64,000 bases of DNA from an uncultured Smithella sp. (GTDB taxonomy: Bacteria > Desulfobacterota > Syntrophia > Syntrophales > Smithellaceae), in the NCBI GenBank assembly GCA_964394715.1, contig CAYMYR010000007.1, positions 498-64,497 of the forward strand, given 5' to 3'. Below, piece by piece: positions 2,183 to 63,910 of the stretch; the stretch's first letter is position 1; each line of letters begins with the position of its first letter. A model generated the notes under the pieces. It was given only the letters and a program-made list of their open reading frames with translations. It did no database searches and was not told the origin of the DNA. Position numbers and translations under genes: made by a program.

Positions 2183-4585
2183 TCACCGGCCCACCAGTGT
2201 GCTCCGCCTGATGATTTCGTCCTTCATGGCCGGCGACAGGTCGTTGAAGTAGGCAGAATATCCTGACACCCGCACCAGCAGGTTCGGATAGAGGGAGGGA
2301 TTGTTCCTCGCTTCGATAAGCACCGAGGGGTCCAGCACATTTATCTGGACCTGCATGCCTCCCCGTGAGAAATAGGTCCTTATTAGTGCCTGGAGGGCGC
2401 CGGCCCCCTCGGGACCGCGCAGGGTGTGCGGGTCGAACTTCAGATTGAAATTCAGACCGTTCCCGACCCTGGTCGTGTCGAGGCGGTTCACTGAATTCAG
2501 CAGCGCCGTGGGCCCCCTGAGGTCCTTTCCATTTTCCGGCGATATGCCGGAGGCAAAACTCTCTCCTTTCCTCCGGCCATGGGGGAGGGCGCCCGTAATC
2601 CTTCCAAAATACTCGTGGGCTGTTACTGAGTATAGGCCCATCACATAATCGCCGCCCCTGGTATTCTTCCCCATTGAGGTTAGCACCTTCTCAAAGGTAT
2701 CTGCCACATACCGGGTCCAGCGATCGGCCTCCATGTTGTCGTTGCCGAATTTCACGATGCCGGCGAGATAGGCCCTGTCTTTTTCATCGGGAATATTCTT
2801 CTTTAGGATCTCAACGAGTTCATCGAGGGTGTAGCGCTTGTCCTGGAATACGGACTTTTCAATTGCCCGAAGGGCATCTCCCGTGTCGGCCGGGGCCACG
2901 CACTGGACGCCGGAGAAATTGTACAGGGCGCCGCCGGCTGTGCTGCAGCTTCCTTTCTCGAGGCACCCACGGATCAGCATGCTGGTCAGCGGCGTGGGAT
3001 GATACAGCCGGTTGGCCGTTTCGACTGCGCGCAGGTCGCGGACGAGACTTCCCAACAAAGTGCGGAGCTGCGTCTCGAAGGCTGATAGCAAATCATCCAT
3101 GGAAGACATGGACTTCGGACCCGGGGTGGACGCCCCGGATCTGAATATCTTCCCGAATCGCTTCCCCCTGTTCAGGGCGATCTCAAGGACACCGGGAACG
3201 TTGAATATGGCCGCGTCGGTGGACGAAAAGCTTTTGCCCTGTGAAACCGGCTCCACGCAGCCCACGCCGGTGTAGTCCCTCGCGTCGCACGGATCGTAGC
3301 CGTGTTTCACCATGGACGCAACGATTGCCTCGTCGCCGTAGAGGGCGGGGGAATTGCTTCCCGCCGCCAGCATTGCCGTGATCGACGCGAGGTACTGCGC
3401 CGGTGAACCGCGGTGCACCCGGGCATGGTAATTGGGCTGCCGCATCCTGAGCTCATTCATTATTTCCAGGAAGATATATGAGAGCTCGTTGGTGGAATCG
3501 TTTCCTTCGCCGTCGGTCCCACCTACGGTCACTACCTGGCCGTTGAACATCCCCCCGTGGAAATTGGTGAGGTGGCGGGAAAAGACCGGGATGATCTCGG
3601 ACATCTTTATGGAAAAGCAGGAAAGCATCTCCTTTGCCGATTCTCGGTCCAGTTTTCCCGACTGCAGGTCCCTGCTGTAATAGGGATACAGGTATTGGTC
3701 CATCCGTCCGGGACACACCGAGTTGTCGAGGCTCTCAAGGTTCAGGGCGATCTGCGCGAAAAAGAGTGACTGGAGAGCCTCGCGGAACGTCCGGGCCCCG
3801 AACCGGGGAACCCGGCGGCACACATGGGCAATTTCCATCAGCTCCCGCCGGCGTGCGTTGTCTTCCTCGGCCGAGGCCATCTCCTCGGCGAGGACCGCAT
3901 ACCGCTCGCCGAAGCGTGCCAGACCCTCGCAGATGATCTTTACGCCTTCGTAAAAATTCCATTCCCCCGAACCCGGTTTCGTTCCTGCCTGAAGCCCGGA
4001 TGCCTTGTGCCTGTACCCATCCGTACCGATGGCGAGGAGCGTTTCATAGTCGGGGGCGAAGTGGGATATGCCCCCGGATTCATTGATCAGGTACCATCGG
4101 GCCTTGAGCTGGTCGAGAATGAACCTCGCCTTGGCGAACGGCGAACGGAAAGCCCTGAAGCCCAGGAAGCGGAAGAGCCAGAAGGGGATGATCCGGAAGA
4201 GCTTTCGTTTTTCTTTAGGCGATATCCCGAGGGGGTTCGTTTCTCTACTGGTGAAGGTGAAGAGGTCGAGGAGCACCGGGATACCGTGGAGCTCGGGGAA
4301 AATGGAACCGCCGACGCGCTTCGATGTGTAATTGCCGACGATGAGTTCGTGGGGGTATATTCTGACGCTCTTCGCTGCAAGTACGCCGGAAAGCGCCTCG
4401 GCAATGGCGACAGGCGCCGGTTTTTTCCTGTTGGACCGCTGGCGGTAATACTCCGTCCAGAGAAGGGCGCGCTCCGTGCAGATGCCGGGCCGGCAATCCG
4501 TCACGGCTTTTTTCAGCTCCGCTATTCTTTCGGTTACCCCTTTGTCGTTTTCGTTGTATGCTTTCTCAGCTGTACACGATTGCAT
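2183..4585 (-). CDS. Glycyl radical enzyme, PFL2/glycerol-dehydratase-like clade, substrate unknown
   Basis: ORF 2183..4591, with the start moved to ATG 4585 (GAAGGAGG 6 nt upstream). Has the C-terminal glycyl-radical motif LVRVSGYSAYFNDL and a Cys loop GVGCVEP (Cys-x-Glu). About 800 aa. Confidence 0.9.
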   Translation of the reverse strand: MQSCTAEKAYNENDKGVTERIAELKKAVTDCRPGICTERALLWTEYYRQRSNRKKPAPVAIAEALSGVLAAKSVRIYPHELIVGNYTSKRVGGSIFPELHGIPVLLDLFTFTSRETNPLGISPKEKRKLFRIIPFWLFRFLGFRAFRSPFAKARFILDQLKARWYLINESGGISHFAPDYETLLAIGTDGYRHKASGLQAGTKPGSGEWNFYEGVKIICEGLARFGERYAVLAEEMASAEEDNARRRELMEIAHVCRRVPRFGARTFREALQSLFFAQIALNLESLDNSVCPGRMDQYLYPYYSRDLQSGKLDRESAKEMLSCFSIKMSEIIPVFSRHLTNFHGGMFNGQVVTVGGTDGEGNDSTNELSYIFLEIMNELRMRQPNYHARVHRGSPAQYLASITAMLAAGSNSPALYGDEAIVASMVKHGYDPCDARDYTGVGCVEPVSQGKSFSSTDAAIFNVPGVLEIALNRGKRFGKIFRSGASTPGPKSMSSMDDLLSAFETQLRTLLGSLVRDLRAVETANRLYHPTPLTSMLIRGCLEKGSCSTAGGALYNFSGVQCVAPADTGDALRAIEKSVFQDKRYTLDELVEILKKNIPDEKDRAYLAGIVKFGNDNMEADRWTRYVADTFEKVLTSMGKNTRGGDYVMGLYSVTAHEYFGRITGALPHGRRKGESFASGISPENGKDLRGPTALLNSVNRLDTTRVGNGLNFNLKFDPHTLRGPEGAGALQALIRTYFSRGGMQVQINVLDPSVLIEARNNPSLYPNLLVRVSGYSAYFNDLSPAMKDEIIRRSTLVGR

Positions 4586-5492
4586 CGACACCCTCCTTCT
4601 GAAAAAGAGATTTCAGTTCTTCCATTTTATCCCGCTCCTGTGCCTCGATGACCTGCGGCCTTTGACTGGTATTGATCCATGGGAGCTTGTCCCTGACGAG
4701 GGGATTATAGGGCAGGCAGTGGATCGTGCGGATTCCTTTTGAGAGAATGAAGGATGCGCAGTGCCTGATGTTTTCGATGTTATCGTTCATGCCGGGTATG
4801 ACCGGTATCCGCGGCTGGAGACAGCCGTGAGTGGTGGCGAGGGCGGAGAAGTTATCGAGGATGCGCAAATTGTCCCGGCCGGTGAGCTCCCGGTGTTTTT
4901 CACTGTCCATGTGTTTCAGGTCGTAATAGATGAAATCAGCGGACCGTACCAACATATCCATGAGGGACCTGTCGAAAAAGCCGCATGTTTCGACCGTAAC
5001 GGTGATGCCCCGCTTGTGGAGAAGCTGGCAGGCCTGCTCAAGAAAAGCAGGATACATAAGAGGCTCGCCGCCGGAGAAGGTGACGCCGCCGCCGGACTCC
5101 CGGAAAAAATCTATATCCATGGCAAGCTCGGCAGCAAGATCATTGGGCCTCCATTCCTCACCGATAAGGGTGAGGGCGCCGCCGGGGCACGCCTTCGCGC
5201 AATCGCCGCAGGCGTTGCACCGCGAATAATCTATGCGCCGGTCATTGCCCCGGATGATGGCCCCGCATTGGCATGCCGCCTGGCACGAGCCGCACCCGAT
5301 GCAGCGTTCATGCCTGAAGGAGATTTCGGGTTTGGCTGAAAGGGTTTCCGGGTTCTGGCACCAGATGCACCGGAGGGGACAGCCTTTGAGGAATACAGTT
5401 GTCCGGATACCCGGTCCGTCATGGAGGGAAAACCGCTGGATATTGCTGATGATGGCCTTCTCAAGGCCTTCTGATGAAGGTTTTGTGCTCAT
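4566..5492 (-). CDS. Glycyl-radical enzyme activating protein (radical SAM) with ferredoxin-type insert
   Basis: LHDGPGIRTT followed by CPLRCIWC (CX3CX2C). Two extra cluster motifs follow: CIGCGSCQAAC and CNACGDCAKAC. The 3' end overlaps the GRE start by 20 nt. Confidence 0.9.
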   Translation of the reverse strand: MSTKPSSEGLEKAIISNIQRFSLHDGPGIRTTVFLKGCPLRCIWCQNPETLSAKPEISFRHERCIGCGSCQAACQCGAIIRGNDRRIDYSRCNACGDCAKACPGGALTLIGEEWRPNDLAAELAMDIDFFRESGGGVTFSGGEPLMYPAFLEQACQLLHKRGITVTVETCGFFDRSLMDMLVRSADFIYYDLKHMDSEKHRELTGRDNLRILDNFSALATTHGCLQPRIPVIPGMNDNIENIRHCASFILSKGIRTIHCLPYNPLVRDKLPWINTSQRPQVIEAQERDKMEELKSLFQKEGVDAIVYS

Positions 5493-47314: not shown

Positions 47315-47391
47315 GTTTATCCTCCTTTTTATACAAATTCAATGGGTTAGGAGTATTAAATACATAAAATTGAATACCATTCATAATTTGA

Positions 47392-47419
47392 ATAGTACTA
47401 TTTTTGTGAAATATGTCAA
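47392..47419 (-). promoter_or_regulatory. Candidate sigma70-type promoter of the dsr array
   Basis: Read on the minus strand: TTGACA (47419-47414), a 16-nt spacer, then TACTAT (47397-47392). This implies a 5' UTR of about 70 nt before dsrA. Confidence 0.4.
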
Positions 47420-47762
47420 GTAAAAGGTGCCGTAACCTGCGTGCCACCCGCATGCCCGGAAAGGTGTCTGGATTTTTGGCCATGAACATCATCCATGGAT
47501 CGGGTTCATGAAAAGAAGAGTTGTGTTGTCCTTTGATTAAATACAAAAAGTTGCGTTATCTCTATTTCCCCGGAGCCCGCAGAATCGGAAGAGGCCTGGA
47601 TCGATTAGGAATAATGATGCCACAAGTGAAGGAGAGGTCATGCCGCGTGAGAAAAGCTCATTCGGAAAGAGGGAAGATTGCCCGTTTCCTTGATCGAGTT
47701 TATTTATTCTACACTGATGATGAAAATAATCAAAGTGATTTATTGGAAAGTTCATGAACGCC

Positions 47763-47791
47763 TTGACATATAAAACTGCATTTTCTATACT
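47763..47791 (+). promoter_or_regulatory. sigma70-type promoter for the 47842 gene
   Basis: TTGACA (47763-47768), a 17-nt spacer, then TATACT (47786-47791). Confidence 0.5.
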
Positions 47792-47841
47792 TTGATTGAT
47801 TAAAAAGATTTCTGATCATTATCAATCCGGCACAGGAAACG

Positions 47842-48819: not shown

Positions 48820-48855
48820 AAAGGTTGCATCTTTTTTTGAAAAAGGGGGGGCGAA

Positions 48856-49416
48856 ATGAAAGCGCGTGTAGCCATGAAGAAAATACCGCTCAGGAAAGCA
48901 TTCACGCTGATGGAATCAGGGCCGGTTGTCCTTGTGACAACAAACGATGGCGGGAAGAACAACATCATGACCATCTCCTGGACCATGGTAGTGGACTTCA
49001 CACCGCAGTTTGCCATCACCACGGGGCCATGGAACTTTTCCTATGCGGCGCTTCGGAAATCCAGGGAATGTGTAATTGCCATTCCTGCTGTTGACATGAT
49101 TGATCAGGTTGTTGGCGTGGGAACGTGTTCCGGTTCCGATACAGACAAATTTGAAAAGTTTGGATTGACTCCGTTGACGGGAAAACATGTCAGGTCTCCC
49201 CTGATTAAAGAATGCCTGGCAAATATCGAATGTAAAGTTACTGATATCATCAGGAAGCACAACATCATTGTCCTTGAAACTGTTGCTGCATACTTCGACA
49301 TCTCTCGCAAAGAAAAGCGAACCATTCACGCAATCGGCGATGGCACCTTCGTGATCGATGGGCGTATGTTAAATCGAAGGAAAATGATGCAGTCAAAGCT
49401 TCCGGATGGCGTGTGA
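48856..49416 (+). CDS. Flavin reductase-like FMN-binding domain protein
   Basis: PVVLVTTNDGGKNNIMTISWTMVV...AIPAVD pattern typical of the flavin-reductase split-barrel family. 186 aa. Confidence 0.7.
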   Translation: MKARVAMKKIPLRKAFTLMESGPVVLVTTNDGGKNNIMTISWTMVVDFTPQFAITTGPWNFSYAALRKSRECVIAIPAVDMIDQVVGVGTCSGSDTDKFEKFGLTPLTGKHVRSPLIKECLANIECKVTDIIRKHNIIVLETVAAYFDISRKEKRTIHAIGDGTFVIDGRMLNRRKMMQSKLPDGV

Positions 49417-49467
49417 TTCATTGGTATAAACCCGACAGCCTGACCTATGATTTATTAAGGAGGCATC

Positions 49468-51477: not shown

Positions 51478-51533
51478 ATTTTAGGCATTACCACAGCAGG
51501 AGCGAATAGTAGTCTTTTATTTTATTACGAAGA

Positions 51534-52190
51534 TTATTCATTATCAGTTGTCGACATCCAGAGCTCTTTGCCCTTTGTTGTCAAGAAGGCCTCAAACATC
51601 CCCAGACTCATTTTGATCAGGGCCTCAGTGGCTTCCTCACGTGAGTACTTTTTTTCGACGATATAACTGTGCACAATCTGCATCCCCATCCCCAGAAATG
51701 CGTGGCTCAAAAGTACCGGGGTAACTCCCTCAATGATTCCCTCCTGCAGCCATTTATCCACATCTTCGGCAAAGTCGCCGGCCCAGGCGCTAAACGCCCC
51801 CCATGTTGCTTGATCGAAGGCCTCGTCTACTCCATAGCCGCGACGGAGCATGATGAGAAAGATGTGGGGGTTGGCATCAATATAATCGAAAAGGACCGTG
51901 TAGGTTTCCCGAAGAATTTTAATCCGATCAATCCGATCCCTTACATTAAACGAACTTCGGACTTCGCGGATGTGTGTTCGGACATTCTCCAGGTTTTCCT
52001 TGGTGATCCGCTCAAAGATATCGCGTTTGTCTTTAAAATAATTATAGAAGGTTCCGGCGGAGATGCCGGCTGACCTTGCGATGTCCATGACTTGAGTGTT
52101 ATGATAGCCTTGTTTGCTGAAAATTTCTGATGCAGCTTCTATGATACAGTTCAGTGTCTGCTGCCGTCTCAGTTCCGAAACCTTTGACAC
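51534..52190 (-). CDS. TetR-family transcriptional regulator
   Basis: HTH TQVMDIARSAGISAGTFYNYFKDKRDIF. Divergent from the efflux operon. Confidence 0.85.
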   Translation of the reverse strand: MSKVSELRRQQTLNCIIEAASEIFSKQGYHNTQVMDIARSAGISAGTFYNYFKDKRDIFERITKENLENVRTHIREVRSSFNVRDRIDRIKILRETYTVLFDYIDANPHIFLIMLRRGYGVDEAFDQATWGAFSAWAGDFAEDVDKWLQEGIIEGVTPVLLSHAFLGMGMQIVHSYIVEKKYSREEATEALIKMSLGMFEAFLTTKGKELWMSTTDNE

Positions 52191-52355
52191 ACCTGCCTCC
52201 CCCGGAAAGGATTTTTGAAGATTCGAGAAAACCTTTTATCCAGAAACTGGAAATCATAACTATTTATTTTTAGCATATTTTCCCTCGGTGGTCTCTTTTT
52301 TTTTATAAAAGTTTCTATCTTCCTCTTGACAGAGAATTGCGATTATGGTTTATGG

Positions 52356-52397
52356 ATAATGAAATGTCATTACTATATAATAATGACATTTCATTAT
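52356..52397. promoter_or_regulatory. Perfect 17-bp inverted repeat, probable TetR operator
   Basis: ATAATGAAATGTCATTA (52356-52372), an 8-nt spacer, then TAATGACATTTCATTAT (52381-52397), an exact reverse complement. It lies in the TetR/efflux intergenic region, about 25 nt downstream of a TTGACA at 52326-52331. Confidence 0.55.
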
Positions 52398-52656
52398 TAT
52401 ATATAAATATATGAAATATTATGTGATTTATAGACAGTAACTAAAATATTTGGTTCAATAAAAATGGTCTTTTGATGAGATCTTTGTCTATGGGGAACAA
52501 GAGGAAAACAAAGCGCAAACAGTTTGTTTTCTGTTCTTTGGCCACCATGATTATTGAATGTTTGACGCTTGCCAGATGCGAAAGAAACGGACAGGCGTTT
52601 GGTTTGTCTAAACCTTGGTCCGCCGGTTGTAAAAGAAATAGAAAGATGGAGGGTGG

Positions 52657-53640
52657 ATGAACATGACATTTACGATAAACGTAAGACTCATGAAAAAGAT
52701 CGTTAGCATTGCCGCTTTAATCATCATCATCGGAGCCCTGTGCGGATACATTTCATACAGTAAAGACAAGAACGCTGCTCCCAGAGGTTTCGTCATGGGC
52801 AATGGACGTGTTGAGGCCACGGAGATCGACATTGCAACAAAATACCCTGGACGCCTCTGCCAGGTCTTTGTCAGGGAGGGGGACACGGTGAGGGCAGACC
52901 AGGTGGTAGCAAAGATGGACACAAGCACCCTTGAGGCGCAATTGATGCAGGCCGAGGCGGAAATCCACCGAGCCCGGGAATCTCGTAAAACGGCAATCTC
53001 GAGGGTCAGGGAAAGCGAAAGTCGCCTCGATCTGGCTTACCGGGAACTGGAACGATCCCAAAGGCTCGTGGCAAAGGGTTTTATCACCCGGCAAAAATAC
53101 GACTACGACCAGACTGCCGCGGAGAGTTTTGAAGCCCAGAATGCAGCAGCCAGAGCCATGGTGGGCGAAGCCGGCGCTGCGGTTGAATCCGCAAGTGCTT
53201 TGGCAAAACGTTTGAGGGCGGAAATCAATGACTGTATTTTAAAGTCACCCCGCAACGGACAGGTCATGTCACGCCTTGCCGAACCCGGTGCGGTCCTGGG
53301 GGCAGGGGGTAAAATCCTGACAATCATCGATCGCGGGGACATGTACATGAATGTTTTCCTTCCCGCCAACGCCGCAGGGACTATTACCGTCGGATCTGAC
53401 GCCAGGGTGGTTCCCGATGCCTTCCCGAACGAGAACATCCCGGCAAAAGTGACTTTCGTTTCCGAAAAAGCGCAGTTCACCCCCAGGGAAGTAGAAGCTA
53501 CTGAAGAAAGACAGAAGCTGGTCTTCCGGGTTAAGGTCCATCTCCTAAGTGGAGAGGATAAGCGTCTGAAGCCGGGTCTCCCGGGTATAACCTATGTCCG
53601 CGTTGATCCTGCAGCCAGTTGGTCCGGTATTACCAGATGA
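52657..53640 (+). CDS. HlyD-family periplasmic adaptor (YhiI/YbhG-like)
   Basis: N-terminal TM segment, biotinyl/lipoyl-like and coiled-coil segments, and a C-terminal KPGLPG. GGAGG upstream. The stop overlaps the next start in an ATGA arrangement. Confidence 0.8.
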   Translation: MNMTFTINVRLMKKIVSIAALIIIIGALCGYISYSKDKNAAPRGFVMGNGRVEATEIDIATKYPGRLCQVFVREGDTVRADQVVAKMDTSTLEAQLMQAEAEIHRARESRKTAISRVRESESRLDLAYRELERSQRLVAKGFITRQKYDYDQTAAESFEAQNAAARAMVGEAGAAVESASALAKRLRAEINDCILKSPRNGQVMSRLAEPGAVLGAGGKILTIIDRGDMYMNVFLPANAAGTITVGSDARVVPDAFPNENIPAKVTFVSEKAQFTPREVEATEERQKLVFRVKVHLLSGEDKRLKPGLPGITYVRVDPAASWSGITR

Positions 53641-56393
53641 ACGACCAGGAAAATTCCCCGGAAGCGATCATCCAAATCGAAAGCCTGAAACATCTCTATG
53701 GGAAAAAGCATGCCCTGGAGGGCATCGATCTTAAGATTCCGGCGGGTGGCCGCATCGGTTTTATCGGTCCGGACGGCGTCGGGAAATCGACATTGCTCGG
53801 GGTAATCGCCGGGCTGAGAAAAATTCAGATCGGAAAGGTCCAGGTCTTGGGCGGCGACATGCGATCCGGCAACCACTGCCAGAGTGTATGCTCCAAGATC
53901 GCCTATATGCCGCAGGGACTGGGACAGAATCTCTATCCAACCCTTTCCGTCTTCGAAAACATCGACTTCTTCGGCCGCCTCTACAGCTTTTCCCGCAATG
54001 AGAGAGAAGAACGCATCCACCGTTTGCTGAAAGCCACAAACCTCGCCCCGTTTGCCGACAGACCCGCCGGAAAACTTTCCGGGGGAATGAAGCAGAAACT
54101 GGGGTTATGTTGTGCCCTGATCCATGACCCGGAACTACTTATTCTCGATGAACCGACGACCGGCGTTGACCCTCTTTCACGACGCCAGTTCTGGGAGCTT
54201 GTCAATGAAATCCGTCGGGAACTTCACGGAATGACTATCCTGGTAGCAACAGCCTATATGGAAGAAGCGGAGCATATGGACTGGCTGATCATGATGGAAG
54301 GGGGTAAAATTCTGGCCGTAGGTACCCAGGAAGAGTTGAAGGTCCAGACGGGAAGAGAATCCGTCGAGGAGGCCTACATCGCCCTGCTGCCGGAGGAAAA
54401 GCGCCGTGGTCACCGCGCATTTACTATACCACCGCGCGTTGCCGGCGACGGCGGCTTCGCCATTGAGGCCCGTAATCTCACCAAGTGCTTCGGCGATTTC
54501 ACCGCCGTGGACAACGTTTCCTTCGATATCCCTAGAGGAGAAATCTTCGGCTTTCTCGGCTCCAATGGCTGTGGAAAGACAACAACGATGAAGATGCTCA
54601 CGGGGCTCCTGCCCCCTACGGAAGGGGAGGCATTTCTTTTCGGGGAGACGATCGAGGCCGGCAGCATCAGCCTCCGCAAACGGCTGGGCTACATGTCCCA
54701 GTTGTTTTCCCTGTACGGGGAGTTGACGGTCAGGCAGAACCTGGAGCTTCACGCCCATCTCTTCGATCTCCCTGCCCGGGATGTCCGCAAACGCGTCATG
54801 GAGATGGTAGAGCAGTTCGACCTCCGGGAGGTCATCGATGATCAGGCGGAGCGGCTGCCCCTGGGTATCCGGCAGAGGCTGTCCCTGGCAGTCGCGGTCA
54901 TCCACGAACCGGAGATCCTGATCCTGGACGAACCGACATCCGGTGTTGACCCGGTAGCCCGGGACCAGTTCTGGGAGCTGATCATCAAGATCTCCCGGGA
55001 ACGCAATGTGACGATCTTCATAACCACGCACTATATGAACGAGGCCACCCGATGTGACCGTATCGCGCTGATGAGCATGGGGAAGGTCCTCGCCTGCGAC
55101 TCACCGGCCGAACTCATCCGGACCAGAAACTGCAAAACCCTGGAGGAGGCCTTCATTGAATGCATGCGGGAAGATATCGAAAGGAACAGCGAATTTACTC
55201 TGACGGGAAAGAGAAATGACGATGCTCCTTACACAGTTCACAAGACACATACGCAAAAGCAGAACCGAAGTTTTGACATTCATCGTCTGGCTGCGTTGGC
55301 CAGAAGGGAAACCATTGAATTGCTGCGCGATCCTGTCCGCCTTGTGACTTCCTTTGTTGTTGCCCCGCTCCTCCTTATCGTTTTCGGATACGGAATTTCG
55401 ACAGACGTGGACAACATCCGATACAGTACCCTTGATTACAACAGAACTTCTTCGAGCCGTTCCTACCTGGAATCTTTTTCCAGTTCTGCTTATTTGAACG
55501 AAAAACCGCCCCTGGAAAATCCGGTGGATATGGACAGGCATTTCCAGAAGCTGGATTATACCGCCGTCATCGAAATCCCCCCGGACTTCGACAAATCCAT
55601 CAAACAGGGCCATACATCGACCGTTGGCGTCTGGATCGATGGAAAGGTGCCGTTCCGTGCGGAGATCGCGAAGAACTTCATTGAAGCCGCCCATCTGACT
55701 TACCTGGCCGGGATACTGAAAGGTACCCCCTTCTCCCCGGAAAACCAGGCGGTACAGATCGAACCGCGCTACTGGTACAATCAGATGGTGCAGAGCCGCT
55801 ATTCCATCGTCCCCGGCATTCTCGCTGTTGTGCTGATGCTTGTCCCGGCCATGCTTACGGCCGTTGGCGTCGTCCGGGAAAAGGAATTTGGTTCCATTTC
55901 CAATCTCTATGCCAGTCCCACCACCCGTACCGAATTTCTCTGGGGGAAACAGGCGCCTTATATCATCCTGAGCGGAGCCAGCTTCTTTATCCTCGTTGTC
56001 CTCATTCTTTTTCTGTTCCAGGTCCCCTTCAAGGGCAGTATCATCGCCTTGTTTGTCGGCGTTTTTCTCTACATCCTGAACAGTACCGGGTTCGGACTCC
56101 TGGTGTCTACCTTTACCCAGACCCAGATCGCCGCCCTGGTCGGGGCCTTCGTCATAACGGTCATCCCTTCCGCCGCATTTTCCGGTCTGCTGACCCCGGT
56201 CTCGGCCATGGTCGGAGGGGCAAGGTTCATGGCGGACTACTTTCCCGCCCAGTATTTTCTGAACATCAGCGTCGGTACTTTCACCAAGGCCATCGGATTT
56301 CCGGAACTGATGAAAAATTACGTCATCCTCATCATCATGTACCTCGTTATCTATTCACTGTCAGTGATGCTGTTACAGAAACAGGATAAATAG
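53637..56393 (+). CDS. Fused ABC transporter: two ATPase domains + ABC-2 permease (RbbA/YhiH-like architecture)
   Basis: Start moved to ATG 53637. Walker A GPDGVGKST and GSNGCGKTT. Signature motifs LSGGMKQK and LPLGIRQR. Walker B LLILDEPT and ILILDEPT. About 6 TM helices at the C-terminus. Confidence 0.85.
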   Translation: MNDQENSPEAIIQIESLKHLYGKKHALEGIDLKIPAGGRIGFIGPDGVGKSTLLGVIAGLRKIQIGKVQVLGGDMRSGNHCQSVCSKIAYMPQGLGQNLYPTLSVFENIDFFGRLYSFSRNEREERIHRLLKATNLAPFADRPAGKLSGGMKQKLGLCCALIHDPELLILDEPTTGVDPLSRRQFWELVNEIRRELHGMTILVATAYMEEAEHMDWLIMMEGGKILAVGTQEELKVQTGRESVEEAYIALLPEEKRRGHRAFTIPPRVAGDGGFAIEARNLTKCFGDFTAVDNVSFDIPRGEIFGFLGSNGCGKTTTMKMLTGLLPPTEGEAFLFGETIEAGSISLRKRLGYMSQLFSLYGELTVRQNLELHAHLFDLPARDVRKRVMEMVEQFDLREVIDDQAERLPLGIRQRLSLAVAVIHEPEILILDEPTSGVDPVARDQFWELIIKISRERNVTIFITTHYMNEATRCDRIALMSMGKVLACDSPAELIRTRNCKTLEEAFIECMREDIERNSEFTLTGKRNDDAPYTVHKTHTQKQNRSFDIHRLAALARRETIELLRDPVRLVTSFVVAPLLLIVFGYGISTDVDNIRYSTLDYNRTSSSRSYLESFSSSAYLNEKPPLENPVDMDRHFQKLDYTAVIEIPPDFDKSIKQGHTSTVGVWIDGKVPFRAEIAKNFIEAAHLTYLAGILKGTPFSPENQAVQIEPRYWYNQMVQSRYSIVPGILAVVLMLVPAMLTAVGVVREKEFGSISNLYASPTTRTEFLWGKQAPYIILSGASFFILVVLILFLFQVPFKGSIIALFVGVFLYILNSTGFGLLVSTFTQTQIAALVGAFVITVIPSAAFSGLLTPVSAMVGGARFMADYFPAQYFLNISVGTFTKAIGFPELMKNYVILIIMYLVIYSLSVMLLQKQDK

Positions 56394-56395
56394 CA

Positions 56396-57511
56396 ATGAG
56401 AAGACTCTGGCACATCTATAGAATAGGATTGAAGGAACTGATCAGTTTCCGCTACGACTATACCCTGATCATCCTGCTCATCTATGCCTTTTCGATTATG
56501 GTGATCGTCCCTGCGAAGGAGGCCGGTGTCCAGGTTCGCAATGCCTCCGTGGGATTTGTTGATGAAGACAACTCCCGGCTATCCGAACGGATCCGGGATG
56601 CTGTCCAGCCTCCGCAATTCAAGACGGCCCAAACCGTATCCCTTGCAGACATCAATCGGGGCATGGACCGGGGAGAGTACACCTTTGTAATCCATATTCC
56701 CCCGGGATTTCAGAACGATGTCCTTTCCGGAAGGCGCCCCGTCGTCCGCATTGACGTTGACGCGACGGCCACAGGCCATGCCAAGCTCGGCACGAACTAT
56801 CTGCGCTATATCATTGCCGAAGAGACAAACCGCTATCTTTACGGAGTGCAGAAATTACCGGGATCGCCGGTCCAGCTTAACATTCGGGTAAAATACAACC
56901 CCAACCGTGAGAGCCATTGGTTCATGGGGATTGTCTTCCTGATGAAGATGATTACATTGCTGTCGGTTCTTCTGCCTGCGGCAGCCCTCATCCGCGAAAG
57001 GGAGCGGGGAACGGTCGAACACCTCCTTGTCATGCCCCTGACTCCCGCCGAGATCATTATTTCCAAGGTCTGGGCCAACAGCCTGGTGATCCTGAGCGGA
57101 GCAATGATCTCCCTCCTTCTGGCTGTCAGGTGGTTCCTTGGTGTTCCCCTCAGCGGTTCCATCCTGCTTTATGCTGTCGGGACAGTTGTTTATCTCTTTG
57201 CGACGACCGGCCTCGGAATCTTCCTCGGGACCATAGCCAAGAGCCAGCCCCAGATGGGTCTGCTCTGCCTCCCCATCGTCACTCCCATCGTAATGCTCTC
57301 CGGCGGGATGACACCTATCGAGGCCATGCCTTTGTGGCTGCAGAAGATTGTATCGTTTACCCCCACCTCCCATTACCTGGAGTTTGCAGCAACGGTTCTG
57401 ATCTGCAAGGCGGGGATTGATATTGTCTGGAAAGAACTGATCGTCATGATGGCCATTGGCACCGTACTCTTCACAGGCGCCATGCTGCGGTTCCGTAAAA
57501 CATTCCGATGA
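56396..57511 (+). CDS. ABC-2 type permease (YhhJ/YbhR-like)
   Basis: 371 aa with one N-terminal TM segment, a periplasmic loop, and 5 C-terminal TM segments. Confidence 0.8.
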   Translation: MRRLWHIYRIGLKELISFRYDYTLIILLIYAFSIMVIVPAKEAGVQVRNASVGFVDEDNSRLSERIRDAVQPPQFKTAQTVSLADINRGMDRGEYTFVIHIPPGFQNDVLSGRRPVVRIDVDATATGHAKLGTNYLRYIIAEETNRYLYGVQKLPGSPVQLNIRVKYNPNRESHWFMGIVFLMKMITLLSVLLPAAALIRERERGTVEHLLVMPLTPAEIIISKVWANSLVILSGAMISLLLAVRWFLGVPLSGSILLYAVGTVVYLFATTGLGIFLGTIAKSQPQMGLLCLPIVTPIVMLSGGMTPIEAMPLWLQKIVSFTPTSHYLEFAATVLICKAGIDIVWKELIVMMAIGTVLFTGAMLRFRKTFR

Positions 57512-57545
57512 GCCGCAACCAACAAACGACTGCGTTAACCGGGGA

Positions 57546-60500
57546 ATGATGACCATGCAGAAAAACGAAAGGAGGGAATCTCCAGCAACCGTGAGACAGA
57601 TTAATTTGATCCATCTGGCTCGCCTGTTCCTTCTGATGGCTTGCCTGATCCTTTTATGGAACACCGGTGCCAAAGTGGCATCAGGAGCCGGGTTCCCGGT
57701 TGATCAATTTGCCGGAAAGATCAAGGTGAATACCATCCAGGTCCTTGCGTCGCCGCGGAAAGAAGATGTCATCCAGGCTGCCCGTATTCTCGAGAGGGTG
57801 ATGGATGGTGTTTATATCAAGAAGGTCGCGGACCAGTATGTTCTGCTCATCGGTTCATTTCCCGATTCCAGAGAAGGAATTCAGGCGGGCCTCTCGGTTC
57901 TCGATGAAGTGAGGCAAGTCTATCCCAGGTCCTTTTTGCGGCCCGTCTGCAAAACACCGCAGTCTGATGCCCAAAATCGCCGCAGGGATTATCGTTGGTC
58001 CGACGGCGAACAATTAAGAAATCGGAAATTCCCGCCGCTCATCCAGGATCCGGATCCGATGTCTGAAGCAGAAAGATACGGCTACGGTTCATCACCCGGC
58101 CGCCGGCCGCCGGGTGATGAACGGAGATCCCTCTATCACCTGCGGGAAAGGAACATTCCATACGGGACCGGACATTCATACCACCCATCCGACGGGGAGT
58201 CCACTGACCGTGATGAAATCCGTTATGGTGATCGGATACCTGGATTTTATGGAAGCAGAAATTCTGTCGATCCTGAAGCCGGGGATGTGCTCAGGGTGGA
58301 TAGCGGGAAATCTCTGCGGGAAACGGATGAACTTCCGGATGGCTACACCGGCAGGGGGACGGAAAAAGAAAAATTCCAACACCTCCACTATATTCAACCG
58401 ATTCCCGTTACTCAAAATGCTGAACCGCAAATTGATCTCGAAGAGTACGGTTACGGATCCGCCGGCCGGCAGTTGGACGAAGGTATGCAATATGCACCCC
58501 ATCCTTCCATGGGAAGAGACGCCAGATATCCGGTCAGGCGATCATACCGGTCGTATGACCAGGGACCGCCCGGTCTTTACGAAAACCGTTCATACAAATC
58601 CGCAACAAGGTCTTATGGAAATAAAAAAGCCGTCGCACCTGAATCAGCGGAGACACGCCCGATCTACGGCCGGCCTTTGTCAAGGAATCCGGAGAATCCC
58701 CCAGAGGATTATTTCCCTGAGGCTGATTTAGGAAAAGAGAAAGAGGGACAGGCAACCATCAGCAATTCGTCTCCGTCCAGTTCTCCTGCGGAGATGTCTG
58801 AAGCAGACCTGATGGTTGCCCGTTCCCTTGAAAAAAGGCGTCCGGAATCAGGTTACGGCAGGGTGGACAACTTCGCTGTAAGGGGGGCCGACGAATATGA
58901 AGAACTGGGCGGTGCCACTGGACTGCGCCAAGAGAGCATGAAGAACCGGGAAAGGGTCTTTAAGGAAACATCCTCCGGCAAGCGGAAGGGTGACGACCGG
59001 TACTCCGTCATCAGGGGAGATGGCGCCGCCGTTAAACCAAAGTTTTCCTCTCCGATTCCGACGCCTTTCTATTCGGCAGCGGCAAGCCGTCGTCCCCACA
59101 GGAATGCTGCCGGATCATTGACCCTCCAGGAAAGCATCAGGATAGCCCTGAAGCAAAGCGTGGTCATTCAATCGGCTAAAGAAGGGGTCGTAGGAGCGCA
59201 GTATGCGAAAAAGGAAGCCTTCACCAATTTTCTCCCCAAGCTGAATACTTCGTACAATTACACCAGGCTCAATGAGCCGCCGGTTTTCCGGACACCGGAA
59301 ACCTCCATCTCTCTGACGACGTATGACAGGCGTCTCAGTATGGCAAATGCCTTTACAATCCCTTCTGTTGATATTCCCATGGGAACCAAGGATAACTATG
59401 CCTGGGCGCTGGAGGTTAAACAGCCTTTGTTTGCCGGTGGCGGGATTCTGTCCAACTACCTGGCAAACCGCACGGGTGAGGAAATCGCCCGAATGGAAGA
59501 GGTGACGGCCATCCAGGATGTGATTCAGGAGGTTATGGTCTCCTACTACAATGTTTTGAAGGCCCAGAGCCTTTACGATGTTGCCGTCAAGTCTCTTGAA
59601 CGCCTGAAGGCTCATCGTGACATGGCCGCAAATCACTTCAAGGTGGGCATGGTTGCTCTGAATGATTATCTCGCCACGGATGTCGAAGTTGCCAATGGGG
59701 AACAGAATCTGGTGAAGGCAGAAAACGCTGTCGAGATGGCCAGTGCCAAATTCAACACGGCTCTGCGCCGTCCCCTGAATACCCCTGTCGAACTCGTGGA
59801 TGCCCTGGAAGTTCGACCTGATAACAGGACCCTGGAGTTTTGTATTAACGAGGCGATGGACCGCCGTCCGGAAATCAAGGCCTATTCTTTGAAGGCCAAG
59901 CAGGCGGGACATCTCGTCGATGCCGCCAAAAGTGAATATTTTCCTACCGTCAGCTTCCTTGGGCACTATGAACTATCGGGAGATACGCCGGGAGTCAATG
60001 GGGCTGAATACTCGGAAACCTTTGCATCGGCCAGCATTCCCGGCAGCAGGGGCAATGTAACGGTCCATGGCAGCCAAACCAAGGATCGTGAGAGCTGGTA
60101 TCTGATGTTTATGCTTAGCTGGAATTTTTGGGAATGGGGAAAAACCCAATACCGTGTCGGTAACGCCCGCAGCCGGGAGATGCAGGTGAATTACGCCTTG
60201 GCCAACATTCGTGATCAGATCTCCCTTGATGTGAAAAATGCCTGGCTAAACCTGCGCCAGGCGGAAAAGCAGATTTCCGTGGCCAGGAAGGCCATCGATG
60301 AGGCGGAGGAAAGCTTCCTGATCAGCCTGGAGCGTTACCGGGAGAGCACAATCACCACGACAACCGTCCTGGATGCCCAAACGCGTCTCACCAAGGCAAA
60401 TTCCGATTACTATAACGCCCTGGGTGATTATCACATCGGCCTGGCGAAATTGGAACGGGCCATGGGTAACCTGTCGCCCGAAAACCGGACAGGTCAATAG
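57546..60500 (+). CDS. TolC-like outer-membrane efflux protein with N-terminal SPOR-like domain and long disordered linker
   Basis: Start probably ATG 57546 (track start 57456 overlaps the permease gene). Hydrophobic signal/anchor segment. SPOR-like block at about 57717-57941 (IQVLASPRKEDVIQAARILERV...YVLLIGSFPDSREGIQAGLSVL). A stretch of about 390 aa rich in R/Y/G/P/E/S follows. From about 59115 it is a canonical OEP/TolC two-repeat domain. Confidence 0.8.
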   Translation: MMTMQKNERRESPATVRQINLIHLARLFLLMACLILLWNTGAKVASGAGFPVDQFAGKIKVNTIQVLASPRKEDVIQAARILERVMDGVYIKKVADQYVLLIGSFPDSREGIQAGLSVLDEVRQVYPRSFLRPVCKTPQSDAQNRRRDYRWSDGEQLRNRKFPPLIQDPDPMSEAERYGYGSSPGRRPPGDERRSLYHLRERNIPYGTGHSYHPSDGESTDRDEIRYGDRIPGFYGSRNSVDPEAGDVLRVDSGKSLRETDELPDGYTGRGTEKEKFQHLHYIQPIPVTQNAEPQIDLEEYGYGSAGRQLDEGMQYAPHPSMGRDARYPVRRSYRSYDQGPPGLYENRSYKSATRSYGNKKAVAPESAETRPIYGRPLSRNPENPPEDYFPEADLGKEKEGQATISNSSPSSSPAEMSEADLMVARSLEKRRPESGYGRVDNFAVRGADEYEELGGATGLRQESMKNRERVFKETSSGKRKGDDRYSVIRGDGAAVKPKFSSPIPTPFYSAAASRRPHRNAAGSLTLQESIRIALKQSVVIQSAKEGVVGAQYAKKEAFTNFLPKLNTSYNYTRLNEPPVFRTPETSISLTTYDRRLSMANAFTIPSVDIPMGTKDNYAWALEVKQPLFAGGGILSNYLANRTGEEIARMEEVTAIQDVIQEVMVSYYNVLKAQSLYDVAVKSLERLKAHRDMAANHFKVGMVALNDYLATDVEVANGEQNLVKAENAVEMASAKFNTALRRPLNTPVELVDALEVRPDNRTLEFCINEAMDRRPEIKAYSLKAKQAGHLVDAAKSEYFPTVSFLGHYELSGDTPGVNGAEYSETFASASIPGSRGNVTVHGSQTKDRESWYLMFMLSWNFWEWGKTQYRVGNARSREMQVNYALANIRDQISLDVKNAWLNLRQAEKQISVARKAIDEAEESFLISLERYRESTITTTTVLDAQTRLTKANSDYYNALGDYHIGLAKLERAMGNLSPENRTGQ

Positions 60501-60571
60501 GGTGCATGCCGGTATGCCATGGCGGATAATGGGTGAGAAAATGGCCGGAACAGGATGCAAAAAAACTGGAT

Positions 60572-63500
60572 CTAACCATAACAGGTCCTGTTGATAATGA
60601 TCTTTTTCAAATCGTCGGAAAGGTCATTGAAGTATGAGCAGTAGCCGGCTACACGAACCAGCAGATGGGGGTATTTTCCCGGATGGTCATAGGCATCGAG
60701 CAAAATTTGTCTGTTAATGACGTTCGGCTGAAACTGCATACCGCCTTTATCAAAGTAAGCACGGATGATGCCGGAGAGGTTTCTGATTCCGTCCCTGCCC
60801 TGGAACAGCGCCGAGTCAACTGTGAATGTAACCGTGGTGCCGTTGGGGGCATAGTTTGCAAAGTCAACCCCGGCAACAGCATTCAGGGATGACAATAAAT
60901 CCGTTGTCTGCATTCCGTAATGGGGGGTAATGCTGTTGGCAAGAGAAACGCCGCCCAATCTGCCTGAGGGCAGCGCGGGCGTTTTCTTCCCGTAGACATC
61001 ATTGACATTCAAAGCATAATATCCTGCGGTATAGATTCCGCCTCTTGGACAGTTCGCAACCGAGTTCAGTGCGCTGACGTAAATCTGCAAGGTTTTGTTC
61101 ACCCATTCGGTTGCCTGATGCGAACCGTCATGACCAAATTTTGGAACTTCGAGTAATGCCGATCTTACCTTCTGAAAATATTCCCCCTCAAAGTTTTTGT
61201 TGACGGCGTCGATGACGTCATGGATGGAATAAAGCTTCTTCCGGTAGACCACCTCGTCAATGGCAAAGAGTGAATCCGCGACGTCCGTGATTCCTACAGC
61301 CTGAATGCCGCTGCTGTTGATTGTCGCGCCGCCTTCGCACAGGTCCCTTCCGCTCTCGATACAACCCTTGAAAAGGGAGGATGAGAGAGGGGTTGTGAAG
61401 TTTTCACGAATCACTTTCTCAATATTCTGGTGATCGGCCAGGATGGAGCTGGTCAGATGATTCAAACGCACCTGAAAGCGGCGAAGCAGTTCTTCCATGT
61501 TCGCAGGGGGCCTGGGTGTGGCCGTTCTTTTCTTTTTAAAACGGTTTCGGGCATGCATGTATTTTGTAAGGACATATCTGGAAAATGGATTGTCCCTGCG
61601 GCAGTTGTATTCGAAAAACTTCGTGGTCATTTTTTCCAGCTGATCGGTGAAACCGATGTTCCACAGATCTTCTTCTTCCCCTTTGAGGGCCTGCAGAAAA
61701 GGAAGGGCGACGTTCACGTTGGCGCAGTCGGTGTTGCCGAAATGATCATCGGACACATTGGGTTCAACGCATCCGATTACCGCGTAATTTCTCGCATCCT
61801 CCACGGGGGCTGAAGGGTAATGCTTTTTTAACGTTTCCAGGTAAATTTCATCGTTGTATAGGGCAGGCATGGGGGCGCCGTTGATATATACCTCGGCAAG
61901 CCTGTCCAGGTATTGTATGGGGCTGTCCTTGTGAATCCTTGCCGTCATGTTGCAGGCGTAAGGCTGCAATTCGCAGATATCGAGCAGCATGTAGGTAACG
62001 TCATTGGTGGCGTCCCTGCCGTCTCTGCCCAGACCTCCGGCGGTTACAGCCTGATCCGTTGACATTGTCTCAAAGAGTCTTCCTATTCTCAAATAGGTAT
62101 CGCCATCATTGACCAGGATGGCTTCGTCCATTTTGAGAATATACAAGGCCAGCAGTTCTTTTGCCTTGTCATAGTCCAGGATACCGGCCTCTTTGTCCCT
62201 TTTATAGTAAGGATATAATACCTGGTCGAGGCGTCCATGGGAGATTGCGTTTTCGTAGGATTCCGTGCAAATCGCAATCTGCAGAAACAGCATGCTTTGC
62301 AGTGCTTCATGATACGTGCGGGCAGGGTATTTGGGGACATGCCGGCAGATTGCGGCCATTCCTTCCAGCTCTTTGCGGCGTTCAGGATCCGCTTCCCGTA
62401 GATGGAGGCTTGACAGACTCTCGGCATAACGAGCGGCAAACGCCTCCAATCCCTGAAGTGCGAGGATGGCGCCTTCGTAAAAGTCCCGGGCATTGCCGGG
62501 CTTTTCTTTTTGCGCCGATTGAATTTCCCTGATGATCCCTGTGGTGCCAAGTTCAAGCATGCGCTCAAAGTTGACGGTAAAATGCGCAATGGCCGCCGTG
62601 TTGTTATTGAATCCGGCAACATTTTCGGAAGAGCGGGCCATGGTCAACATAAACTTGGGGATGGTATTATTCACCTTCATCAAAAGGCTGTGTTTCAGCC
62701 AGAAAGGAAGCGTTCTGAAAAAAAAGTCTAGTCTTTCCCTCCAGGAACACTTAAACGGAACCGGTTTCTGGCGATGGATCTGATGGAGAATCGAGGCGAA
62801 GAGAACGCCGTAGTGTTCCTCCCATATCTGTCCGCCGCATCGTTTGGCGGTAAAATTGCCGACGAGCAGTTCCCGGGGGTAAATAATAACACTCTTGTTT
62901 TTTAATACATAAGACAGGCGCTCTGCTCTGTGAATGGGGGTCGGTTTCTTAAATCCGTGCTTCCTGTAGTAATCTGTTTTCAGCCTGGAGACCTCAAAGC
63001 ACAGACTCCGGCCGCTTTCCCGGATAGCGTTTTGTATGTCATAAACGCGTCTGGAAAAGGCGGCTTTATGCCCGGGAGTATCCAGATCATAGCATTCGGC
63101 TTTGATGCCAAACGATTGGAACAGTAAGACAGCTTTCTTTACAGCGGCAAGGCTCTGCGCATCTGTGATATTCAACGGTTTAGACGTTAATCCAAGACGT
63201 CGGGCTTTCTCTTCATACATGCAGTGGTATTTCAGCAGCTCGATGGTGTCATGACGGACAGACTTCAGGAAATCAGCAGCCGCAGCCACACGGCTTTCAT
63301 CGTCATTGTAACCCGGCACTATCAGCATGCGGAATTTTATCCCGGCGTTCAGGGCAATCAGTTTACCGATGTTATCCAGGATGATTCTGCTGTCCTGCCC
63401 CGTGTATTTCTTATGGAGAGTTTCATCGCCGACAACTTTCAAATCAACAAGGAACAGATCGATGCAGGGTGCCAACTTCTCGATATTTTCCCATGGTACG

Positions 63501-63910
63501 TGAAGGGAAGTTTCAACGGCCACATGGATACCATCTCTTCTTAAGGGTTCCAGCAAAGATATCAGGGTGTCCGGGTCCTGTAATAGAGGATCGCCACCGC
63601 TCAGGGTTACCCCGCCGTTGGTCTGGCGGTAATAATCTTTGTCTCTGGAAACAAGTTCGATGATGTCGGGAATCGAATAATTTTCGTCAGGCACCGGGTC
63701 CGGATGGAAGGACAGCGCTTCCGGATTCTGGCACCACAGGCATCTCAATCTGCATCCCCGGAAAAAAATCGTTGTGCGGATGCCGGGGCCGTCATGAACG
63801 CAGGTACGCTGTATCTTCAGGACGTTCATCCCATCCGTGTGCAAGTTTTGGCGCTTATAAGATGAATCGTCCTGTAGTCTCAAAAGCTGATGGTTCTGAG
63901 CGGTTTCCAT
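60572..63910 (-). CDS. Fusion protein: radical-SAM GRE-activase domain (N-terminal) + PFL2-type glycyl radical enzyme (C-terminal)
   Basis: Uninterrupted 1112-codon ORF. The first ~280 aa carry VHDGPGIRTT, CRLRCLWC (CX3CX2C) and GGVTLSGGDP. The remainder parallels the GRE at 2183..4585 (IIYPRELLVGNF, Cys loop IGCVEP, C-terminal LVRVAGYCSYFNDL). An alternative start is ATG 63829. Neither start has a strong SD. Confidence 0.85.
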   Translation of the reverse strand: METAQNHQLLRLQDDSSYKRQNLHTDGMNVLKIQRTCVHDGPGIRTTIFFRGCRLRCLWCQNPEALSFHPDPVPDENYSIPDIIELVSRDKDYYRQTNGGVTLSGGDPLLQDPDTLISLLEPLRRDGIHVAVETSLHVPWENIEKLAPCIDLFLVDLKVVGDETLHKKYTGQDSRIILDNIGKLIALNAGIKFRMLIVPGYNDDESRVAAAADFLKSVRHDTIELLKYHCMYEEKARRLGLTSKPLNITDAQSLAAVKKAVLLFQSFGIKAECYDLDTPGHKAAFSRRVYDIQNAIRESGRSLCFEVSRLKTDYYRKHGFKKPTPIHRAERLSYVLKNKSVIIYPRELLVGNFTAKRCGGQIWEEHYGVLFASILHQIHRQKPVPFKCSWRERLDFFFRTLPFWLKHSLLMKVNNTIPKFMLTMARSSENVAGFNNNTAAIAHFTVNFERMLELGTTGIIREIQSAQKEKPGNARDFYEGAILALQGLEAFAARYAESLSSLHLREADPERRKELEGMAAICRHVPKYPARTYHEALQSMLFLQIAICTESYENAISHGRLDQVLYPYYKRDKEAGILDYDKAKELLALYILKMDEAILVNDGDTYLRIGRLFETMSTDQAVTAGGLGRDGRDATNDVTYMLLDICELQPYACNMTARIHKDSPIQYLDRLAEVYINGAPMPALYNDEIYLETLKKHYPSAPVEDARNYAVIGCVEPNVSDDHFGNTDCANVNVALPFLQALKGEEEDLWNIGFTDQLEKMTTKFFEYNCRRDNPFSRYVLTKYMHARNRFKKKRTATPRPPANMEELLRRFQVRLNHLTSSILADHQNIEKVIRENFTTPLSSSLFKGCIESGRDLCEGGATINSSGIQAVGITDVADSLFAIDEVVYRKKLYSIHDVIDAVNKNFEGEYFQKVRSALLEVPKFGHDGSHQATEWVNKTLQIYVSALNSVANCPRGGIYTAGYYALNVNDVYGKKTPALPSGRLGGVSLANSITPHYGMQTTDLLSSLNAVAGVDFANYAPNGTTVTFTVDSALFQGRDGIRNLSGIIRAYFDKGGMQFQPNVINRQILLDAYDHPGKYPHLLVRVAGYCSYFNDLSDDLKKIIINRTCYG

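Follow-up and report, generated by a model that had tools for sequence, protein, structure and literature searches.

A radical-SAM activase fused to a glycyl radical enzyme in a conserved protein family of uncultured Smithella-like bacteria

How an activase (AE) of the radical S-adenosylmethionine (SAM) type engages its large glycyl radical enzyme (GRE) is a long-standing question; the glycyl loop lies buried in the GRE and has to swing outwards. The sole experimental activase structure is that of the E. coli pyruvate formate-lyase (PFL) AE, alone or with a 7-mer peptide (PMC13450708). This enzyme, PflA (3c8f/3cb8), is a single-cluster radical-SAM activase without a ferredoxin-like domain. On the GRE side, the closest solved relatives of the protein described here are A. 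fulgidus PFL2 (2f3o, functionally unassigned like our enzyme), then the propanediol dehydratase (PD) of Roseburia inulinivorans (5i2a) and the glycerol dehydratase (GDH) of Clostridium butyricum (1r8w). We analysed a 64,000-nucleotide stretch of DNA from an uncultured Smithella sp. (contig CAYMYR010000007.1; the window), in which one gene on the minus strand encodes first a complete activase and then a complete PFL2-type GRE. This fusion was the core of an original prediction made from the sequence of the window, and independent sequences confirm that it is real.

The fused GRE shares its fold, GCVEP and RVxGY with 2f3o, 5i2a and 1r8w, and differs from them in carrying an activase at its N-terminus, in a 58-residue two-helix insertion and in an identity of ~26-30%. 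The fused AE, like PflA, has no ferredoxin-like domain; unlike PflA, it belongs by sequence to the PFLE_PFLC branch of activases and is attached to its presumed target. The gene is laid out as follows, with positions counted along the window and amino acids (aa) along the fused protein.

60572..63910, minus strand: fused AE-GRE open reading frame (ORF), 1112 aa plus a stop codon, ATG start, 0 internal stops in the ORF list
63821..63910, minus strand: N-terminal extension, aa 1-30, variable in length, poorly conserved and predicted to be disordered
63089..63820, minus strand: AE domain, aa 31-274, from Pfam, NCBIfam TIGR02494 and alignment with E. coli PFL-AE (3c8f/8fo0)
63059..63088, minus strand: inter-domain linker, aa 275-284, DLDTPGHKAA, from the AE and GRE alignments
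60575..63058, minus strand: GRE domain, aa 285-1112, PFL2/dehydratase-type, from Pfam PFL-like and Gly_radical, with TIGR01774 as the best NCBIfam match

The uninterrupted ORF and the Pfam and NCBIfam scans place both complete enzymes in one polypeptide of 125 kDa. Pfam matched Radical_SAM at 48-205 (1.9e-18) and Fer4_12 at 40-159, followed by PFL-like (PF02901) at 288-764 with a second stretch (2.2e-129) and Gly_radical (PF01228) at 991-1095 (6e-21). Every motif named in the original prediction (VHDGPGIRTT, CRLRCLWC, GGVTLSGGDP, IGCVEP and LVRVAGYCSYFN) was located in the translation. The AE alignment stops at Y274 and the N-terminal helix of the GRE starts at ~285-287, leaving a linker of 10 residues, after which the chain enters the part matched in alignments by the N-terminal helix of stand-alone GREs; the junction had been estimated at about 63050-63080, in agreement with the linker at 63059-63088. 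A junction-spanning tryptic peptide, for example AECYDLDTPGHK within aa 270-290, is predicted from the fused protein.

The architecture is shared by many independent sequences. A search of 5.8 billion proteins gave 526 matches, and the best 120 clusters, which we inspected, were 67-99% identical to the window protein, 1100-1139 aa long when complete, and all composed of Radical_SAM, PFL-like and Gly_radical. When one genome per species was scanned, 24 loci were recovered (66-93% identity), all in metagenome-assembled genomes (MAGs) and none in a cultured isolate. The MAGs are labelled Smithella, Smithellaceae, Syntrophaceae, Desulfomonilia, Desulfobacteraceae and 'Deltaproteobacteria', with single bins labelled Bacteriovoracaceae and Leptospirales. 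More divergent members lacking the ferredoxin domain (P0385, P0386) are 50-52% identical, and in a search of 1.84 billion cluster representatives the window family formed essentially one 50% cluster. Across an alignment of 17 diverse members, mean column identity was 76% and the length of the linker was constant.

Selection was assessed by segment, as the ratio of nonsynonymous to synonymous substitution rates (dN/dS) against 14 relatives. Ratios were lowest in the C-terminal part (0.04-0.10) and the N-terminal half (0.05-0.10) of the GRE, followed by the AE domain (0.10-0.22) and the family-specific insertion (0.12-0.30), and were highest in the first 30 residues (0.3-0.85). The AE and the GRE are thus both subject to purifying selection, which has kept them as one reading frame.

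These data bear on the simplest alternative, that the long ORF is an artefact of a frameshift, a lost stop or a chimeric assembly, or else a recent fusion without function. The window itself shows how one might arise. It contains an ordinary pair at 2183..5492, as originally described, consisting of a stand-alone GRE of 802 aa (2183..4591) and, upstream of it, a 308-aa AE (4566..5492) bearing ferredoxin-type 4Fe-4S domains (Pfam, NCBIfam); the two overlap by 26 nucleotides at the level of ORF calls (4566-4591). As the AE ORF precedes and overlaps or abuts the GRE ORF, one frameshift would suffice to fuse them, and some public records of the fused family do carry frameshifts. However, at least 120 independent clusters and 24 MAG loci, obtained by many projects with differing sequencing technologies, share the uninterrupted architecture and the linker length, and codon-level purifying selection extends along the whole ORF. 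Each fused domain is only ~35% identical to its counterpart in the pair, so the gene does not represent that pair in fused form either. A frameshift or assembly artefact is excluded, and this alternative as a whole is effectively refuted.

Frameshifts explain another set of records. Three proteins (P0257, P0401 and P0391), 48-53% identical to the AE domain, were candidates for stand-alone ferredoxin-less activases and were rejected: at their loci (L058:6001-9612, L059:6001-9346 and L060:6001-9281) the GRE resumes after the AE, in another frame or beyond a stretch of N. All three are fused genes that sequencing errors have disrupted, and with them gone the search yielded no reliable unfused orthologue for the window family. 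Because such fragments are filed under the name of a stand-alone 'pyruvate formate-lyase activating enzyme', the fused architecture is undercounted in databases.

The AE domain carries the following features.

aa 38-47, minus strand: VHDGPGIRTT, from the translation of the fused ORF
63731..63754, minus strand: CX3CX2C motif CRLRCLWC, aa 53-60 (C53, C57, C60), expected from the motif to bind the SAM-cleaving [4Fe-4S] cluster; the three Cys are invariant in 17 members
63686..63715, minus strand: site of the missing ferredoxin-like insert, LSFHPD/PVPD, between aa 70 and 71, from pairwise alignment
63587..63616, minus strand: GGVTLSGGDP, aa 99-108, SAM-binding 'GGE'-type motif, aligned with GGVTASGGE of PFL-AE

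In PFL-AE, the DGPGxR, CX3CX2C, SGG[D/E]P, DLK and YH motifs bind the cluster, SAM or the Gly-loop peptide. All five are invariant across the 17 members, and those of E. coli PflA align with the fused AE over aa 38-242. Within the GGE-type motif, residues G99, G100, S104, G105, G106 and P108 do not vary, and position 107 holds either D or E. The domain scores 217.8 bits on NCBIfam TIGR02494 (PFLE_PFLC, GRE-activating), over the cut-off of 174.35, and 143.1 bits on TIGR02493 (PFLA), under the cut-off of 231.75.

The eight-Cys ferredoxin-like insert of two CX2CX2CX3C motifs, a hallmark of non-PFL-type AEs, is absent throughout the fused family. Aligned with the window's stand-alone AE (35% identity), the fused AE lacks nothing between the DGPGIR loop and the C-terminal strand (Y274) except 51 residues. 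These are missing as a single clean gap after D70 and before P71, at the precise place of the two CX2CX2CX3C motifs. The absence of these motifs had been noted in the original prediction, and the domain has no Fer4 Pfam matches. Residues 68-75, the site of the deletion, form a loop of low predicted local distance difference test (pLDDT) score in the structure model described below. As the TIGR02494 score exceeds that for TIGR02493, the ferredoxin domain was lost secondarily, and the AE is not a recruited PflA.

This loss is also one of the reasons to ask whether the AE domain works at all. The main rival to an active fused AE is a domain that now serves for docking or regulation, or senses redox state through its Fe-S cluster, with the GRE armed in trans by the AE at 4566..5492 or by another one. 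The ferredoxin-like domain now deleted is found in the vast majority of non-PFL AEs, its role being stated as unknown (PMC13450708); the GGE motif reads GGD in the window copy; and a separate full-length AE lies in the same window. Against this, PFL-AE and the class III RNR activase function without a ferredoxin domain (PMC13450708), members of the family have either D or E at the GGE position, and the fused gene also occurs on MAG contigs without a neighbouring AE. An inert domain is further disfavoured by the invariance of the residues that in PFL-AE bind the cluster, SAM and the Gly loop, and by the low dN/dS of the AE domain. We consider it unlikely, while ranking it above the other alternatives weighed here.

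The GRE domain carries four features that bear on its chemistry and its distinctness.

62576..62590, minus strand: IAHFT with His443, counterpart of GDH His164, from a HMMER alignment to 1r8w
61760..61777, minus strand: Cys loop IGCVEP, aa 712-717 (thiyl-radical Cys714, Glu716), aligned with GCVEP of GDH, PD and CutC
61511..61684, minus strand: family-specific insertion, aa 743-800, ~58 residues, charged and basic, with two predicted helices
60626..60661, minus strand: glycyl radical motif LVRVAGYCSYFN, aa 1084-1095 (radical site Gly1089), from Pfam Gly_radical

Membership of the GRE superfamily is supported at both ends of the domain. RVAGY at aa 1086-1090 fits the RVxG[FWY] pattern within the Gly_radical domain, and the PFL-like ten-stranded barrel with its Cys loop is evident from PF02901, GCVEP at 713-717 and the match of the structure model. 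R1086, V1087, A1088, G1089, Y1090 and C1091 are invariant in the 17 members, as are G713, C714, V715, E716 and P717.

The active site resembles that of GRE eliminases of the diol dehydratase, CutC and HypD type, with their CxE, His and Asp residues. In the HMMER alignment to 1r8w, GDH Cys433, Glu435, His164 and Asp447 correspond to C714 and E716 (of C714-V-E716), H443 and D728, and none of the four varies within the family; H443 is also strictly conserved when fused and stand-alone relatives are taken together. Such a Cys/Glu/His/Asp set is typical of GRE 1,2-eliminases. On this basis we predict a dehydratase- or lyase-type elimination on a hydroxylated substrate.

The insertion after the Cys loop sets the family apart. 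Alignments to every solved GRE in the PDB break into two stretches around aa 745-800. The insertion is found in all ferredoxin-less fused members, those of 50% identity included, and is absent from the other fused families, from the stand-alone GREs examined and from every solved GRE. In a model built with AlphaFold2 on a 33-row alignment (mean pLDDT 86.3, predicted template-modelling score (pTM) 0.87), it forms helices at 754-769 and 775-795 with pLDDT of ~76-84. By Foldseek, the modelled GRE part matches A. fulgidus PFL2 (2f3o) with a template-modelling (TM) score of 0.94 and a root-mean-square deviation of 2.9 A, and TM scores range over 0.92-0.94 when the propanediol dehydratases and glycerol dehydratase are included. 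By rough arithmetic, an arbitrarily placed AE domain, a quarter of the chain, would limit pTM to ~0.73. The higher value obtained is a hint of a defined docking of the AE on the GRE body.

The same model gives low confidence to the parts that join or precede the domains, with pLDDT of ~67 in the linker and below 50 in residues 1-25. We therefore weighed whether the fused protein might be a precursor, cut at the linker, or accompanied by a GRE made from an internal start, to yield separate AE and GRE. (The linker is the least constrained segment after the N-terminal extension, in addition to its low pLDDT.) Yet it is only 10 residues long and contains no Met, no conserved Met or start codon lies near the junction in the 17 members, and no protease site is known. 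Additionally, its length is identical in all members of the ferredoxin-less family, and long and variable in the ferredoxin-containing fused families; such strict conservation suggests a structural tether. Processing into two proteins is improbable on these grounds, somewhat more so than an inert AE domain.

These observations can be combined into a candidate mechanism. The N-terminal radical-SAM domain would bind one [4Fe-4S] cluster through C53, C57 and C60. With no auxiliary ferredoxin-like domain left, this cluster would probably receive its electrons directly from an external flavodoxin or ferredoxin, by analogy with E. coli PFL-AE. The AE would then cleave SAM and take a hydrogen atom from Gly1089, either in its own chain or in the dimer partner; from the sequence evidence we infer that it activates the attached GRE, in cis or in trans. 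The armed GRE would pass the radical to Cys714, which together with Glu716, His443 and Asp728 could carry out 1,2-elimination on a small hydroxylated substrate. The fusion would set a 1:1 stoichiometry and pack the system in one transferable gene, which fits the solitary position of the gene in changing neighbourhoods.

The reverse assignment of roles, in which the fused activase mainly serves other GREs, such as that at 2183..4591, and the attached GRE recruits or regulates it, seems less probable still than processing of the chain. AEs normally act catalytically on many GRE molecules, and a second GRE is at hand in the window. That GRE, though, has its own adjacent AE, and the fused gene travels alone through unrelated neighbourhoods. 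The attached GRE has an intact Gly motif, Cys loop and set of active-site residues, and is under the strongest constraint in the protein (dN/dS 0.04-0.10).

Overall, we put the probability that this is a genuine single-chain system, a GRE with its own activase attached and with eliminase chemistry, at roughly 0.7. Several points weigh against it. For the C-terminal 830 residues the best GRE model, NCBIfam TIGR01774 (PFL2/glycerol dehydratase), gives 472.1 bits, under its cut-off of 678.2 (the window's stand-alone GRE, at 649 bits, is also just under it). The best equivalog model gives 343 bits against a cut-off of 1000, and none of the characterised GRE equivalogs HypD, CutC, HpsG/HpfG, IslA, HPAD, indoleacetate decarboxylase and PFL is reached (cut-offs 1000-1150 bits). 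The predicted chemistry is extrapolated from four conserved residues, and the H281-S282 pair, which contacts the substrate in GDH, is N554-A555 in the fused protein, in a segment (ESYENAIS) most like ENYEQAIS of A. fulgidus 2f3o. Furthermore, the ferredoxin-like domain is reported to be necessary for a lasting radical in the HPAD system (PMC13450708), which makes its absence from a non-PFL-type AE unusual. How the AE active site would reach the Gly loop of its own chain through a 10-residue linker is not evident, and the stand-alone AE at 4566..5492 might act on the fused protein. When all ORFs of 30 loci were clustered and 6 contig contexts viewed, no neighbour recurred beyond close relatives, with few exceptions, and the neighbourhood gave no functional clue. 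Lastly, we found no experimental work on the fused family in the literature.

A stronger version of the single-chain reading is tentative, and we would sooner expect it to fail than to hold. It supposes an obligately covalent AE:GRE complex in which the insertion replaces the lost ferredoxin domain in docking or gating, and in which the AE arms, and once the radical is lost re-arms, the Gly loop in its own dimer 1:1. If it were true, the family would offer the first tractable route by cryo-electron microscopy or crystallography to the AE-GRE encounter complex with an open glycyl radical domain, and would perform an elimination on a substrate not yet assigned to any GRE.

Fusion of the two enzymes is not restricted to this family. 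Other full-length AE-GRE fusions, seen in the search of cluster representatives, retain the ferredoxin domains: P0122 (1095 aa, 40% identical), P0125 (1136 aa) and P0237 (1052 aa), to which related fused proteins from an Oligoflexia MAG (P0360) and from the anaerobic eukaryote Anaeramoeba flamelloides can be added. The P0122 family comprises at least 60 clusters from Acidobacteriota and Deltaproteobacteria MAGs. These ferredoxin-containing fusions (P0122, P0125, P0237, P0360 and KAJ6251211.1) have the same AE-then-GRE order, are ~1050-1140 aa long and are likewise uncharacterised. They differ from the window protein, to which they are only 31-40% identical, in their two CX2CX2CX3C motifs, in linkers of up to ~50 residues and in having no insertion after the Cys loop. 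The P0122 family, unlike the window family, has stand-alone GRE relatives at 50-58% identity.

Anaeramoeba flamelloides (P0333/P0388; KAJ6251211.1, KAJ3450765.1) encodes an 1131-aa fusion with ferredoxin domains that shares ~37% identity with the protein of the window. Of its two records, one sits on a 17-Mb scaffold, and the fused gene in this eukaryote points to lateral transfer into Anaeramoeba.

In a tree of GRE domains (rough neighbour-joining, without support values), the ferredoxin-less family forms its own clade, with the ferredoxin-containing fusions P0360, P0333 and P0125 as nearest neighbours. The P0122 family groups with stand-alone GREs that include the window's second GRE, and P0237 is placed far away. 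Thus, fusion or fission occurred more than once. The overlap of AE and GRE genes seen in the window's stand-alone pair may be a reason for recurrent fusions in this part of the GRE tree.

Two apparent fusions in the genome scan, in Breznakiella (L044) and Treponema (L048), were rejected, as adjacent GRE and AE genes had been joined by tblastn. Breznakiella homolactica RmG30 (NZ_CP067089.2, L044:5938-8478) has instead a naturally split GRE, the opposite of the fused case. A TAG closes a 756-aa PFL2-type ORF just short of the glycyl radical motif. Directly 3' of this TAG, a strong Shine-Dalgarno sequence (GGAGGTG) and an ATG open an ORF of ~84 aa that encodes the Gly-radical C-terminal piece alone (...FYFDKGGMQMQFNVV...LIVRVAGYSAYF...), GrcA-like, and a ferredoxin-containing AE gene comes next. 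Treponema sp. UBA937 (L048:1558-5276) has the same layout. Together with the autonomous glycyl radical cofactor GrcA/YfiD, these split GREs and the fused protein likewise show that Gly module, barrel and activase are separable; in the former the Gly domain is detached from the barrel, and in the latter the activase is attached.

The fused gene is solitary in every locus viewed, with neighbours that vary from locus to locus. The recurring exceptions are a divergent TetR regulator (3 loci), a GntR-like regulator (4) and HypE/HypF (5-6 Smithella loci). Lipid and glycerol themes in the neighbourhoods were considered as a substrate clue and set aside as too weak (glycerol kinase and glycerol-3-phosphate dehydrogenase at L004, phospholipase D at L005, beta-oxidation at L001). 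In the window the gene converges, as originally described, on an efflux operon of HlyD, ABC/ABC-2 and outer-membrane efflux protein (OEP) genes, the last ending at 60500. No promoter- or terminator-like sites were found at the 3' end of the gene in the window, which stops 90 nucleotides upstream of the start codon, and Rfam gave no match in the 800 nucleotides around the start of a 99%-identical copy.

The original prediction had also taken a lower GC content as a hint of a separate origin. This did not hold: at 0.499, against a window mean of 0.523, the gene lies at the 25th percentile of same-sized windows (range 0.459-0.576) and is not a composition outlier. The GC content thus lends no support to a foreign origin.

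Comparison with L001, the contig that carries the 99%-identical fused protein, shows that the window has ~9.1 kb extra (51481-60559) separating the fused gene from a Hydrolase_4 gene, and strains therefore differ by insertion or deletion of the efflux operon. The extra DNA contains the following genes.

51534-52190, minus strand: TetR regulator
52657-53640: HlyD
53619-56393: ABC-ABC-ABC2 fusion
56396-57511: ABC-2 permease
57456-60500, plus strand: OEP/TolC-like ORF, listed as 1014 aa

In the OEP ORF, OEP domains occupy only the last ~450 residues. The first ~550 are of low complexity, rich in Arg, Gly, Tyr, Pro, Ser and Glu, and have no Pfam match. The TTG start of this ORF overlaps the preceding gene by 55 nucleotides, and thus the true start may be further downstream. 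Elsewhere in the window, positions 40710-49443 have 96% DNA identity to the part of L001 that bears dsrA, dsrB, dsrD, a CbiA-family gene and dsrC. Genes for dissimilatory sulfite reductase are thus clustered in this organism at a distance of ~11 kb from the fused gene.

AE-GRE fusions recur in sequence databases, and for this reason the window protein is less surprising than at first sight. The original prediction allowed that the architecture might prove common and already characterised; it is indeed common in metagenomes, and no paper describing it was found. Some members already have JGI product names that give both functions, and NCBI names them 'pyruvate formate lyase family protein' or 'radical SAM protein'. 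In the full-text literature we found no description of a natural AE-GRE fusion, although a passing mention in Backman et al. 2017 or in Shisler and Broderick 2014 is possible, and the words 'fused' and 'fusion' are absent from a 2026 GRE review (PMC13450708). Thus, as the architecture is recurrent and partly annotated, the novelty lies in the missing characterisation and in the special features of this family rather than in uniqueness. Its distinguishing features are the 10-residue tether, an AE that lost its ferredoxin domain secondarily, and the two-helix insertion beside the Cys loop.

These features make the family useful for the question of activation. As a natural fusion with a 10-residue tether fixes the partners 1:1 and close together, the encounter complex should become approachable structurally and spectroscopically, and the fused protein could serve as a naturally occurring one-chain model of an activation step that no structure has yet captured. 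Mixing AE-dead and Gly-dead variants would permit a clean distinction between action in cis and in trans. A one-gene, self-arming GRE, if true, would also be a handy part for anaerobic metabolic engineering. With regard to ecology, the enzyme occurs widely among the Smithella-like syntrophs that live in peat, sediments and digesters, where its reaction is unassigned. Finally, the family shows that a non-PFL-type activase can do without its ferredoxin domain, which bears on the role of that domain.

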